A DNA stretch of 64,000 nt from Gammaproteobacteria bacterium (GCA_965238175.1 CBDEGZ010000003.1:3168001-3232000), one strand, 5' to 3'. Shown: positions 15,979 through 23,527, numbered from the stretch's first letter. The notes: generated by a model not told the origin, from the sequence alone. Numbers and translations are program-made.

Positions 15979-16767
15979 CTACTTACGGCTGGGAAAAGGT
16001 ATATCTGGAATATTCTTAATAGATTCTAAGGCATCCATGAAATCAGATCCAGATTTTGGCATCTTACTAATTTCATTAAACTTCTGGTTTTGTAAGTCTT
16101 GGCACTTCGACCGATCTACTAAATTTTCAGGACAAGTGAGACACGAGTTTATAGCACTATTTATATTGTTAGTAACCGTTGTATTACTATTAAATTCATC
16201 AATCGAATCTGCTACATCAATCCCTGTCCATATTACACCTGAACCTACAACAAGCCACCATAATATCGGTGCGATCTCACCGGTAGGATCGATACGATTT
16301 AAGGGGTTCCCCCCAACATATCCATAAGTACTCATTCCCCCATCCAGTCCAATCGGGTCACTCGTAACATACCGCCCAATACTCGGATCATACGTCCGAA
16401 AGTAATTATAATGCAGCCCCGTCTCCGCATCAAAATACTGTCCCGGAAAACGTACATTATTCGTCACCGTCTCTGTCGTCACAGTGGCCTTCCCAAACGG
16501 ATCATACCCCGCCTGCCAGACAATATTCTGGTTTGCATCCGTCAGCACCTGTGGGGTGCCCAGATGATCGTTGTGGTAGTAACTGATCTCTGTCGCTGAA
16601 GCACTCGCCGTTAATCCCGCTATAAACAATAGTCTGAACATTTTACTGAGTGTTTTACCTACTTCCATTATTAAACCTGTCATGGGTTTTCTTCCTTTCA
16701 TGGCGATTACTGCTGCCGCTTGTCTTTTTTGATCAATCATGTCGTTGTTTGTTTTCGTCTGTCTCAT
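15979..16767 (-). CDS. Stand-alone Rhs-associated core plus variable C-terminal domain, with a signal-peptide-like N-terminus (start uncertain: 16767, 16668 or 16641)
   Basis: MFRLLFIAGLTASASA|TEISYYHNDHLGTP...RFPGQYFDAETGLHYNYFRTYDP...SDPIGLDGG...IDPTGE, then a hydrophobic segment and Cys-containing C-terminus. Confidence 0.85.
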   Translation of the reverse strand: MRQTKTNNDMIDQKRQAAAVIAMKGRKPMTGLIMEVGKTLSKMFRLLFIAGLTASASATEISYYHNDHLGTPQVLTDANQNIVWQAGYDPFGKATVTTETVTNNVRFPGQYFDAETGLHYNYFRTYDPSIGRYVTSDPIGLDGGMSTYGYVGGNPLNRIDPTGEIAPILWWLVVGSGVIWTGIDVADSIDEFNSNTTVTNNINSAINSCLTCPENLVDRSKCQDLQNQKFNEISKMPKSGSDFMDALESIKNIPDIPFPSRK

Positions 16768-16769
16768 GA

Positions 16770-21407: not shown

Positions 21408-21463
21408 GGTTTTTTCTTCTCTGGTGCGCAATATGACGTCATTAATTGTTAGTTTATTCAATT

Positions 21464-23527
21464 TCATGTGTTTGGCGTCTCCACGGTTTGGGTTTGGAGA
21501 CGGCCTTGGGAGTCGTAGCTGTTAATGGTTTTTTTAACCAGCGTGTTAGCGGTGTCGTATACCTCTATGACTTCAGGAACCCGAAAGCTTGTGTGCCATT
21601 GGGTGATTGTTTTACGTTGTTGAGGTGTCCCTGATGCTTCAATACGTTCTTCTACCAGTCCACGTGTGTTATAGGTGTAAGTCGTCTGATTACCTTTCCA
21701 GTCGGTGGTGCTTGATAGGTAACCGTTCGCATCATAAGTTCGATCTACGATTTGGCGATTAGGACAACTTAAACATCGATCGCCGGTAACCTCTTTCACA
21801 CGTGAAGAACCATTGACGGTTTCGAAGGTATAGGTATGCGTTCCACCAAGGGGATCGAGGACGGTTGTTGTGCCGTCATTGTTGTAGGTAAAGGTAACCG
21901 CTTCGGTGTCTAGCGCATGCTTGGATAAAATTGCACGACCTTTATTGTCATAGTCCCAAGTGGCAAAGCGATCACCATTTTCATCAATAATGCCGGTTAG
22001 TTTATGAGGTTGGTTAGGCTTGTCATAAACATAACGACGTTCTTGATTATCAGGGTATGTCACTGAGCTTAAATTGCCATTGACACTTGTTTGATATTGC
22101 AATATTCCATCAGGTGTCGTGACGGATCGAAGATAACCTTGGGCGTTATAGGTAAAGCGCAGTTCTCTTCCGAATGGGCCGGTTACCCGATCCAGGGTGT
22201 TGGGATTATCATCACCGTTGCTACCTGAAGGCAACGTATACTCAAGTGTCTGCACCAAACCTGCTCGATTGGTAATACTGAGCAATTTACCGTCACTATC
22301 GTACTCTTCAATTGTGTCGTTACTGTCTGTGAATCGCCACCCATTTGTTAGCTGTTCGAGTTTAATTGTCTCATTGGTGTAGCTTGTCCAAACACCACCA
22401 TTTTTTTCAAAAAAGAGCTGACTGCCATTTGCTCTGTTAACGGTCATCGTGTTTGATTGTTCCAATAAATCGAGATAACTATTGGCCGAGTTCGTCAGTG
22501 ATGACGGATGACTTGATCGGATCGTCATCATGGTAACTGTTTGACCACCACTTGACACTTTGCAGCTTTCTCCTTGCAAACTGGCGGTCGCAGATGAAAA
22601 CTGCCCACCAAACACAGTGCCTTTTAAGTCATTCCAACCCATAATGCAGGCATCCTGAGCAGAGCTGTAAAGACTCGATCGATCTACCAGTGTTGTACTT
22701 GATGCTAGGACATTTGGCATATTTAGTTGTTGCGATTCTGCCCGACGTTCTATAGGTGCTTCACCGAGGGTGCGTGAATAAGTATGACGCCATCCCATCG
22801 CCACATACTCCGCATTTTTTGTACTGCCCTGACTGTTGTAATAGCGACTAAAATGCAAGCCATTGGAAACACTTGAGGTATAGTCTGTTTCGGTCTGAAA
22901 TTTATTACCGGTTGCCGCATTACAAGGGTTGCCATCTCGTGGCGTGTTACATTGTTTTTCTGGTGGGTTTAATTCGACATAGAATCCTTTGGTGAAGCTT
23001 CTCTCACATTGAGTACTTCTTCCTAGGTAATAGTCTGTAGGACAAAATATCGCGCTTTGCACCCAATTTTGACCAAGCCAATCTGGAGTTTGGTTAAGAA
23101 TCGTCCCACTAGAAGCATAATTCGTGACAAGATATAGGCAGTCACATTCACTTCCGGGAACACATGAACCCGTTGCTCGTGGGTTCTCACGAACGATAGC
23201 CCCCGATCCTGGAACGTATGGAGGAGAGACCGAAGATGCACAGGCTGCTTGATGCGATTCCAGGAAAGCTCCACCGATGGCAAAGTGGGTATGCCGAAAT
23301 TTCTCAACAGAAGGAATTGTTATATAAACCACCCCATTAACTTCTGTTGTCTCTGCCTGGACAGGCGGATTGACACTTGTGAATAGAACAAGGAAGCATA
23401 AAGCAGTATGCTGAATAAATGCTTGGCTAAAAAAAGTAGATCGCTTATTCAATGCTGTTCTCCGGCATAGTTTTGTAATTTTAAAGAGAGGATGTGAAAA
23501 TTTTGTAATTTGAGATTCATTGCCCAA
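21464..23527 (-). CDS. DUF6531-like plus YD-repeat protein (N-terminal part of the split Rhs) with signal peptide
   Basis: ALCFLVLFTSVNPPVQA signal peptide; Cys-rich variable N-terminus; GNPCNAATGNKFQTETDY...FSRYYNS...GWRHTY; YD repeats (HKLTGIIDENGDRFATWDYD). Confidence 0.9.
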   Translation of the reverse strand: MGNESQITKFSHPLFKITKLCRRTALNKRSTFFSQAFIQHTALCFLVLFTSVNPPVQAETTEVNGVVYITIPSVEKFRHTHFAIGGAFLESHQAACASSVSPPYVPGSGAIVRENPRATGSCVPGSECDCLYLVTNYASSGTILNQTPDWLGQNWVQSAIFCPTDYYLGRSTQCERSFTKGFYVELNPPEKQCNTPRDGNPCNAATGNKFQTETDYTSSVSNGLHFSRYYNSQGSTKNAEYVAMGWRHTYSRTLGEAPIERRAESQQLNMPNVLASSTTLVDRSSLYSSAQDACIMGWNDLKGTVFGGQFSSATASLQGESCKVSSGGQTVTMMTIRSSHPSSLTNSANSYLDLLEQSNTMTVNRANGSQLFFEKNGGVWTSYTNETIKLEQLTNGWRFTDSNDTIEEYDSDGKLLSITNRAGLVQTLEYTLPSGSNGDDNPNTLDRVTGPFGRELRFTYNAQGYLRSVTTPDGILQYQTSVNGNLSSVTYPDNQERRYVYDKPNQPHKLTGIIDENGDRFATWDYDNKGRAILSKHALDTEAVTFTYNNDGTTTVLDPLGGTHTYTFETVNGSSRVKEVTGDRCLSCPNRQIVDRTYDANGYLSSTTDWKGNQTTYTYNTRGLVEERIEASGTPQQRKTITQWHTSFRVPEVIEVYDTANTLVKKTINSYDSQGRLQTQTVETPNT

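Follow-up and report, generated by a model that had tools for sequence, protein, structure and literature searches.

Within a stretch of 64,000 nucleotides (nt) from a Gammaproteobacteria bacterium (GCA_965238175.1 CBDEGZ010000003.1:3168001-3232000; the whole stretch is called the window below, and positions are counted from its first letter), we identified a Rhs/YD-repeat toxin locus that is divided over three co-directional minus-strand open reading frames (ORFs), namely gene 1 (21464-23452), gene 2 (16770-21467) and gene 3 (15979-16683), each opening with a hydrophobic leader of its own. It is likely, although well short of certain, that these genes form an operon for a single Rhs/YD cocoon toxin made of three Sec-exported polypeptides, which would assemble outside the cytoplasm and undergo autoproteolysis. 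The order of the genes, their domains, their leaders and the conservation of both cut points together with the leaders are observed. Division of a Rhs cocoon into two or three Sec-exported subunits at conserved positions is supported by sequence comparisons and structural models. The features of the locus, with the evidence for each in brackets, are as follows.

21464-23452, minus strand: gene 1, putative N-terminal shell subunit with signal peptide, variable N-terminal region of ~140 amino acids (aa), DUF6531 plug-like domain and first YD repeats (ORF, Pfam, AlphaFold model)
23354-23452, minus strand: predicted signal peptide of gene 1, MNKRSTFFSQAFIQHTALCFLVLFTSVNPPVQA, predicted cut before ETTEV (crude rule, see below)
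16770-21467, minus strand: gene 2, putative middle shell subunit with an outward array of binding domains (ORF, Pfam; alternative ATG at 21407)
21315-21407, minus strand: predicted signal peptide of gene 2, MKTTPTFLRMTLRLLVTLIVPLTIISQPVDA, predicted cut before ATRSTSYTYD (crude rule; no such leader at the paralogous locus L008)
19368-21314, minus strand: YD-repeat shell part of gene 2, residues 52-700, last strand ...EYIFLNGTLLAQLSG (Pfam RHS_repeat in 10 stretches; matches to 7q97 and 8h8b; interface with gene 3 in a complex model)
16773-19343, minus strand: C-terminal decoration of gene 2, with three Big_7 immunoglobulin (Ig) domains interspersed among four Golvesin_C domains (Pfam; direct repeats)
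15979-16683, minus strand: gene 3, putative plug/autoprotease and toxin subunit with signal peptide, Rhs core and C-terminal domain of ~98 aa (ORF, AAGGAAG site, homologous start of the related protein P0003, MTSLLSRVGKGLKQ...)
16594-16683, minus strand: predicted signal peptide of gene 3, MTGLIMEVGKTLSKMFRLLFIAGLTASASA, predicted cut before TEISYYHNDHLGTP (crude rule; diverged homologous leader in the related proteins P0003, P0004 and P0006)
16276-16593, minus strand: Rhs core, from TEISYYHNDHLGTP through DPIGL to NPLNRIDPTGE (PF03527; alignment to solved Rhs proteins and TccC)
15979-16275, minus strand: C-terminal putative toxin domain, starting with a hydrophobic helix-like stretch, IAPILWWLVVGSGVIWTGI (position after the core; the tip of the paralogue differs)
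15468-15965, minus strand: ORF of 165 aa that begins 13 nt downstream of gene 3 and has a membrane anchor at its N-terminus, putative cognate immunity gene (position only)
23449-23706, minus strand: candidate upstream leader region with a small 85-aa ORF, MMTFCHLATVIKS... (start conserved at the paralogous locus)

Layout of the locus and its paralogue

Together with the 165-aa ORF, the three genes make up four closely packed ORFs on the minus strand, and none of genes 1, 2 and 3 contains an internal stop or frameshift. Both breaks consist of a stop codon, a new start and a leader, neither being a simple frameshift, and a ribosome-binding site precedes the start of each of the three genes. Gene 1 is listed from a TTG at 23527 (21464-23527, 687 aa), which is probably not the real start; from the sequence context we prefer the TTG at 23452, with GGAG 7 nt upstream, from which the product begins MNKRSTFF...NPPVQA and continues with ETTEV. 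Its C-terminal end is ...SYDSQGRLQTQTVETPNT, directly before the stop codon, and Pfam assigns it DUF6531 and RHS_repeat (PF05593, E 9.4e-18). The first ATG of gene 2 overlaps the gene 1 stop codon (ATGA), while translation from the ATG at 21407 yields a leader of 31 residues and then ATRSTSYTYD. In gene 2 (1565 aa), PF05593 is found in 10 stretches over ~650 aa of shell (E 2.9e-54), a part that matches the sequences of Rhs shells of solved structure, 7q97 and 8h8b among them, and the end of the gene coincides exactly with the end of the fourth Golvesin_C domain. After the gene 2 TAA follows an A/T-rich spacer with stops in all frames, and gene 3 lies in a different frame. The best start for gene 3 is the ATG at 16683, preceded by AAGGAAG, from which the product reads MTGLIMEVGKTLSKMFRLLFIAGLTASASA and then TEISYYHNDHLGTP. 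PF03527 (RHS core) matches residues 61-95 of the 262-aa gene 3 ORF (E 9.7e-15), and DPIG and DPTG are both located in gene 3. Contigs of two sequencing runs, which derive from one sample that is possibly the source of the assembly, agree with the window over 19400-23600, showing neither differences nor indels across break 1. A promoter and terminator scan was uninformative with respect to the operon, with 12 promoter-like sites against 13.3 expected.

The crude rule used for the leaders combines the n-h-c layout of signal peptides with an AxA-type site, and requires an n-region of net positive charge, 8-16 uncharged residues with a mean hydropathy of at least 1.6, and small residues at -3 and -1 within ten residues. 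All three leaders satisfy this rule, and each of them ends where the Rhs homology resumes. On direct reading, no lipobox cysteine or twin arginine was seen in the three leaders. Leader 2 has a single occurrence in the genome and leader 3 is found at two Rhs loci only; since neither occurs elsewhere in the genome, the leaders are not pieces of a repeated element, and copies of mobile or repeated elements were ruled out as their source. From these sequences we infer Sec export and leader cleavage of all three pieces.

A second Rhs locus in the same genome (L008) shares 94.5% DNA identity with the window over 4992 columns (window 21296 to 16316), the shared stretch starting just past the gene 2 leader and ending shortly after DPIGL. 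The N-terminal part of L008 is a single ORF that is continuous across break 1 and has no leader there. Residues 199-735 of this ORF align with gene 1, right up to the final residue of gene 1 (48% identity), and residues 730-1064 align with gene 2 from its residue 45 onwards (87% identity). Because both align to adjoining parts of the fused ORF, genes 1 and 2 abut in register, with ~45 codons (stop, start and leader) in the window against a 10-residue linker in L008. At another point L008 is frameshifted by a single base that the window copy lacks, and no leader is present there; judged from its sequence this is an ordinary degenerative break, unlike those in the window. Break 2 is the same at both loci, spacer and leader being identical over 191 nt. 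Leader and core are also identical up to DPIGL, after which L008 has another toxin tip and, in place of the 165-aa ORF, another small membrane protein.

A preliminary description, made from the sequence of the window, had proposed a Rhs/YD toxin split in register into three genes, each with an apparent Sec signal peptide, with leaders and not frameshifts at the breaks, and with a leader in gene 3 directly before a core carrying DPIG and DPTG. The ORFs, the abutting alignment to L008, the outcome of the crude rule and the PF03527 match agree with it on all these points, and the read errors that it had named as a possible source of the breaks were absent from break 1 in the contigs of both runs. 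Its account of gene 2 was right in that the YD repeats continue, but incomplete, as four Golvesin_C and three Big_7 domains had been overlooked.

The Golvesin_C/Big_7 array of gene 2 is coded by four tandem units of 720 nt (spacing 720, 720 and 720) with 93-97% identity. Tandem Repeats Finder gave no match for this array, its longest period of 500 being shorter than the 720-nt unit. Four such units are present at both Rhs loci (window 16773-19343; L008 ~6308-8886). Cross-locus identity reaches up to 98.7%, which exceeds the 93-97% between neighbouring units within one locus and thus suggests, at the level of sequence, that units have been exchanged between the window locus and L008.

The core motif of gene 3 ends DPTGE and not as the canonical DPxGL, and the final E is also found in P0004, P0006 and P0008. 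The two aspartates at the catalytic positions, D109 and D132, are present without exception in gene 3 and its 11 aligned relatives (12 of 12 sequences). As described in the accessible text of PMC8765631, the conserved C-terminal Rhs region spirals into the cocoon, seals it and holds an aspartyl autoprotease, and the catalytic dyad of RhsA is 22 residues apart. By likeness to that region, the core of gene 3 would act as both cocoon seal and aspartyl autoprotease. The toxin tip matched no Pfam family and had no confident Atlas neighbour (best score 0.83, within the chance range), and no Pfam family was found for the 165-aa downstream ORF.

Both breaks in related loci

Among gene 3-like proteins of 128-410 aa we obtained 2362 matches (E <= 1e-5), and 20 of the 120 listed were read, two of which are this genome's own. 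In 11 of the 18 others (P0003, P0004, P0005, P0006, P0008, P0062, P0068, P0073, P0085, P0099 and P0100), thus in at least 11 metagenomic proteins, a hydrophobic leader ends right before (Y)YFHNDHLGTPQ. Four have a Golvesin-like domain joined directly to the core (P0013, P0025, P0054 and P0075), and in the remaining three the core is preceded by sequence of another kind. P0003, P0004 and P0006 have leaders that are homologous to that of the window (MT.L...VGK.L..) but diverged. In addition, reference genomes were scanned with a gene 3 alignment, and the best 80 of 595 matched stretches were collected into 79 loci. The query alignment consisted of leader-bearing proteins and both patterns lay within the core, which biases the sample to the core subfamily but not to leaders.

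In Hahella sp. CCB-MM4 (L037) the toxin is likewise divided over three genes, with the cuts at the two positions seen in the window and a separate, diverged leader on every piece. This locus has two copies of gene 1 with leaders, ending ...SYDDNGRLRSKSIKPVTIN, and a gene 2 with the leader MLMKKSILATAVATLLVSSPGWA before DRTWNYTYN, followed by RHS repeats and one Golvesin_C domain at the very end. Gene 3 starts 12 nt after gene 2, with the leader MNKLFKTIIKTFVFFLLFLNAEAFA before DSQIYYIHTDHLGTPQ and the RHS core, and is followed by a small gene.

At break 1, 12 gene 2-like ORFs in the 79 loci carry a leader directly before (T)SYTYN..G..LT.DGPRTDV, and a thirteenth case (L104) came from an even sample of the class, in which gene 1-like matches (E <= 1e-20) were obtained from 41 of 400 evenly drawn genomes and lay for the most part within long frames. 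The crude rule is passed by 10 of the 12 leaders, L062 and L063 failing only on positive charge. A gene 1-like ORF or piece lies directly upstream in 12 of the 13 loci, and except in L087 the upstream gene 1-like ORFs end 0-13 residues from the aligned end, while fused relatives continue straight across the break.

At break 2, eight of the 93 core matches in the 79 loci are genes consisting of leader and core (L037, L041, L042, L046, L047, L048, L059 and L079), seven lie at contig ends and 10 are short frames that, like classical orphans, have no leader. The same-strand upstream neighbours of the leader-core genes all stop after the last shell strand and an added globular domain, which is Golvesin_C in the window, L008 and L037, He_PIG with an unnamed domain in L059 and L079, an F5/8 type C domain in L047, PPC in L048 and an unnamed domain in L046. 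Two of the leader-core genes, L041 and L042, are located away from shell genes, and the L042 genome has a shell gene on another contig. Golvesin_C also stands in line before the core in fused relatives (L035, L063, L043, L073 and L076), and the split is thus an option and not a necessity. In a quick IQ-TREE tree of 105 core sequences the leader-core genes cluster, with seven changes against a shuffled mean of 19.5 and 0 of 500 shuffles as low; since the starred branches force only one change, a single origin and several origins are not separable. A search of 40 relatives with gene 3 gave no leader outside this genome, the matches starting at residues 42-113. L011, L012 and L015 proved to be ordinary fragments with no leader, and the extra overlapping-frame breaks of L030, L090 and L100 were treated as errors or decay.

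Both cut points and their leaders are, as far as sequence comparison goes, conserved in distant genera while the leader sequences themselves have diverged. Because the same cut points recur in distant marine bacteria, the locus looks like a working multi-part toxin and not like a broken gene. The search for homologous loci with the same split points, which the preliminary description had proposed as a check, thus gave the whole layout in Hahella, break 1 in 13 loci and break 2 in eight, with fused forms being commoner.

Some relatives differ in the number and decoration of their pieces. Tandem arrays of gene 1-like genes, each copy diverged and with its own leader, precede a single gene 2-like gene in L032 (four copies), L087 (three), L037 and L104 (two each), and each gene 1-like copy in L087 has an extra C-terminal domain of ~230-260 aa. 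The fused L026, L030 and L061 have a dockerin-like calcium-binding motif (DINQDGVLNxxDLLLMQRxLLG) before the core instead of Golvesin_C.

Assembly, export and alternative explanations

Gene 2 (residues 52-700) and gene 3 (residues 31-140) were modelled as a complex from alignments made for this analysis, in three runs and with three controls. The interaction prediction score from aligned errors (ipSAE) was 0.93 in all three runs, against 0.00 for the best of the three controls, with a predicted local distance difference test score (pLDDT) of 90 for the partner and at least 97% shared contacts; this mark is reached by 58 of 80 solved complexes and by two of 110 mismatched pairs. Since residues 690-698 of gene 2 touch residues 33-36 of gene 3 in the model, the first residues after the predicted gene 3 cut appear to extend the final strand of the gene 2 shell, next to which the mature N-terminus is thus modelled to dock as a strand. 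In an alignment with solved Rhs proteins and TccC, residues 29-138 of gene 3 correspond to the final ~110 residues of their core region. The AlphaFold model of gene 1 has a mean pLDDT of 59, with residues 23-174 unmodelled, and contains a confident region of beta-hairpin repeats (residues ~334-660) forming a partial YD sheet. A Foldseek comparison of this model with Rhs shells in the PDB gave an E-value of 1.5e-17, but low template-modelling (TM) scores of 0.16-0.30.

Two matches to the GspD secretin over the family cut-off were identified in the genome, which is 97.7% complete and in which none of the TssC, PAAR and Hcp families of a type VI secretion system (T6SS) was found. Sec leaders and a type II secretion system (T2SS) are thus the available route, and by analogy release through the T2SS is the most likely way out. 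We know of no sequence signature that marks T2SS substrates. The Rhs bacteriocin Bcn-A of X. perforans is described as present in the supernatant and lost in an xpsD (T2SS) mutant, its activity being found in concentrates that hold back proteins from 50 kDa upwards, chiefly above 100 kDa (PMC7259588). According to the accessible text of the same report, Bcn-A needs, besides its 1398-aa shell gene, a 290-aa ORF4 with a signal peptide at its N-terminus and a pair of transmembrane helices at 148-198, and immunity is assigned to ORF5, with an inner-membrane prediction (PMC7259588). Rhs families of Xanthomonas and Ralstonia have been linked to gspG and are predicted T2SS users, as stated in the part of the preprint available (bioRxiv 10.1101/2025.05.08.652813), and signal peptide/T2SS is given as one trafficking mode of RHS toxins in Table 1 of PMC3482391.

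The proposed mechanism is as follows. Three chains would be translated from one operon, as the spacing of the genes suggests, and each would be exported by Sec and have its leader trimmed; because the family would be Sec-exported and not fired from the cytoplasm by a T6SS, each piece would depend on a cleavable signal peptide of its own. Every downstream piece would then, with its mature N-terminus, continue the beta-sheet of the preceding one, edge to edge. The DUF6531 cap and the first turns would come from gene 1, the rest of the wall from gene 2, and the seal that spirals inwards, together with the toxin, from gene 3. The shell would close around the toxin, which the core would cut free inside, after DPTG, while the Golvesin_C/Ig arms would point outward and presumably bind the target surface. 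The particle would leave, most likely by the T2SS, and the downstream membrane-anchored protein would protect the producer. It is plausible that the cut points fall where an extra domain sits on the exterior of the wall, so that one chain ends there and the next restarts with a leader.

The remaining claims of the preliminary description can be viewed against these results. The T6SS parts that it had noted as lacking in the window were not found in the genome either with respect to TssC, PAAR and Hcp, and its separately exported multi-subunit shell, which is inferred, gains support from the conserved leader-bearing breaks and from the model of genes 2 and 3. The exchangeable payload that it had suggested is consistent with L008, where the same leader and core are joined to another tip, and with the leader-core genes that stand alone. 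Of the chain modelling it had called for, the docking of gene 2 with gene 3 was obtained (0.93, possibly with memory of single chains, as discussed below), and gene 1 was modelled by itself.

Several observations weigh against a three-piece, Sec-exported cocoon. The crude rule is permissive, as 569 of 1998 N-termini in this genome (28.5%; ORFs of at least 200 aa, first Met) pass it, as do 26 of 525 internal Met positions of long Rhs ORFs (5%), and the start of gene 2 is ambiguous between 21467 and 21407. The complex score may stem from the model's memory of solved single-chain Rhs structures; because such structures have been solved, passing the mark may reflect likeness and not binding of these copies. 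Nor is the split obligatory, as the paralogue (at break 1) and most relatives are fused, with 68 of the 93 cores being fused at break 2 (at least 100 open residues upstream). Among six short-frame places fetched from the class sample, one was a leader-bearing split at break 1, while three ran in frame through break 1 to the contig end and two had other arrangements. L097, one of the break-1 loci, has no gene 1-like neighbour and another leader-bearing protein in that place. The L041 genome gave no shell match with the gene 2 query at E <= 1e-10, and some leader-core genes may therefore act without a shell. Finally, a cocoon of ~260 kDa may be too large to pass through the T2SS secretin.

With these points in mind, other explanations were weighed. 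The pieces could be functional without forming a single cocoon, gene 3 being an autonomous Sec-secreted toxin that uses the core as a self-cleaving pro-domain, and genes 1 and 2 being adhesin-like YD proteins that are secreted or located at the surface. This would account for the leader-core-toxin genes without an adjacent shell (L041 and L042), for the L041 genome and for the lectin-like Golvesin_C/Ig domains at the end of gene 2. We nevertheless regard it as improbable, as the leader-core gene lies a few bases downstream of a shell-plus-domain gene in five of the eight loci and in both copies here, the L042 genome does have its shell gene, and in the model gene 3 adds, with its mature N-terminus, one more strand to the gene 2 sheet. 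Moreover, the ~110-residue core is described as sealing the cocoon (PMC8765631), and it is not known as a free-standing fold.

It is still less probable, and indeed very unlikely, that the locus is a decaying, fragmented Rhs gene with leaders that arose by chance from inserted or diverged sequence. Such breakdown would be in keeping with the truncated Rhs copy beside transposase fragments at 10708-15357, with the frameshift in L008 and with the leaderless orphan fragments that are common in relatives (10 of 93 cores). It is difficult to reconcile with both breaks recurring at the same residues across bacterial families, with the n-h-c layout and A, G or S at -1 kept, with ribosome-binding sites at the starts of three ORFs free of internal stops and frameshifts, and with the identical break-1 contigs from two runs; the 5% of internal Met positions that pass the rule also speaks against chance leaders. 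Equally little probability is given to uncleaved signal anchors, by which the complex would be tethered in the inner membrane and act at the producer's own envelope. The h-regions of genes 1 and 2 are long enough to span a membrane (16 residues by the rule), yet small residues at -1 and -3 (VQA, VDA and ASA) stand directly before the resumed Rhs homology, with the same in homologues, and an uncleaved leader on gene 3 would occupy the start of the modelled strand pairing. The related Rhs bacteriocin is, in addition, described as being in the culture supernatant (PMC7259588).

A cocoon of three exported subunits is thus the interpretation we prefer. If true, two or three chains, each crossing the inner membrane by itself, can make up a cocoon that closes around a toxin carried on another chain, which raises questions of in-trans toxin capture, of the order of assembly and of the exit of so large a particle. 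With respect to annotation, leader-bearing short "RHS repeat-associated core" genes and "truncated" RHS genes would then not be fragments or pseudogenes, and the need of Xanthomonas Bcn-A for small "accessory" genes may find an explanation. More speculatively, and with the balance of probability against it, the system could be a combinatorial kit, put together outside the cytoplasm, in which leader-core-toxin genes are free-standing cartridges, expressed and exported individually and loaded in trans into the shell of other genes, and the arrays of two to four diverged gene 1 copies supply alternative caps for one shell. In such a kit, a new toxin would be usable without the recombination that classical orphan modules need. 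To our knowledge, in-trans encapsulation of a toxin in an ATP-free compartment has not been described for any Rhs or Tc cocoon.

Other Rhs and mobile-element sequences were noted near the locus and elsewhere in the genome. A 1049-aa ORF with FG-GAP and RHS repeats (window 10708-13857, minus strand) reproduces, in truncated form and almost identically, the middle part of a 3331-aa ORF at another place in the genome (L009 4424-14419). The latter contains two complete Rhs units with two cores in one frame, a first unit that is SpvB/FG-GAP-like being followed by its core, a glycine-rich hydrophobic segment and then a DUF6531-like Rhs with its own core and tip. The gene before it (L009 1-4377) encodes a very large secreted-type protein with Ig-like repeats, carbohydrate-binding module (CBM)-like modules, FG-GAP/VCBS repeats and a single Golvesin_C-like domain that resembles those of gene 2. 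Fragments of mobile-element genes are found in window 13935-15357, which separates the truncated Rhs from the locus of three genes. They include a 119-aa piece of an IS200/RAYT-like transposase, of which a full 236-aa copy adjoins the giant Rhs in L009, a second IS200/RAYT-like transposase fragment at 14317-14550 on the opposite strand, and a transposase-like ORF of 250 aa (14605-15357). On the other side of the locus, the 85-aa ORF upstream of gene 1 has a strong ribosome-binding site, and its first ~25 residues (MMTFCHLATVIKSTLLFK...) are kept at the start of the paralogous Rhs ORF (L008 ~12925-13057). Two terminator-like hairpins with T-runs (23610-23589 and 23570-23555) lie inside it, and the region may be a leader or attenuator.

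Comparison with known Rhs and Tc systems

In the current understanding of Rhs cocoons, a single chain, or TcB and TcC in the case of insecticidal toxins, folds in the cytoplasm and so encloses its own toxin. The literature searched contained no description of a multi-gene, leader-bearing Rhs, although supplementary tables, such as those of bioRxiv 10.1101/2025.05.08.652813, were outside the search and might hold cases. With canonical Rhs proteins (RhsA of P. protegens, 7q97; RhsP, 8h8a/8h8b; Tse15, 8uxt) the window locus shares the YD shell, the ~110-residue core with two aspartates and P....DP.G, and a variable tip followed by a small downstream gene; residues 29-138 of gene 3 align to residues 1180-1292 of RhsA. 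It differs from them in consisting of three polypeptides, each with a Sec-type leader, in a genome in which the T6SS parts TssC, PAAR and Hcp were searched for and not found, in having the Golvesin_C/Ig array between the last shell strand and the core, and in a motif ending DPTGE and not DPxGL.

The Tc BC cocoon (TcB and TcC; PDB 4o9x, 6h6g and 4igl) is likewise a Rhs cocoon made from more than one gene product, and its toxin-bearing subunit is described as exchangeable and can be encoded at other loci, according to the accessible text of PMC11067744. Break 1 lies ~650 residues before the core, against ~544 before the core-equivalent in TccC2, which is roughly comparable without establishing that the positions are the same. 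Unlike in Tc toxins, every subunit of the window locus has a leader, and break 2, which isolates core and toxin, has no Tc counterpart. No SpvB, FG-GAP or beta-propeller families were found in genes 1-3 with Pfam, and gene 2 gave no match to TcC at E <= 0.001.

As described, the Bcn-A locus has a Rhs shell gene followed by small genes, including one with a signal-peptide product and an immunity gene, and the layout of its ORF4 resembles a leader, a core and a membrane-active tip, which, taken from the description, is a lead only (PMC7259588). Its ORF2-4 are called accessory or transport factors, and the accessible parts of that report do not describe a split shell or a separate core and toxin subunit (PMC7259588). 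With orphan Rhs C-terminal (Rhs-CT) modules, finally, the window locus has in common short genes for core end, tip and immunity downstream of a Rhs gene, 10 of the 93 cores being leaderless examples. Classical orphans start inside the shell or core, have neither a start codon nor a leader, and need recombination for use. Genes of the window type, in contrast, begin with a ribosome-binding site, a start codon and a predicted signal peptide exactly before the core.

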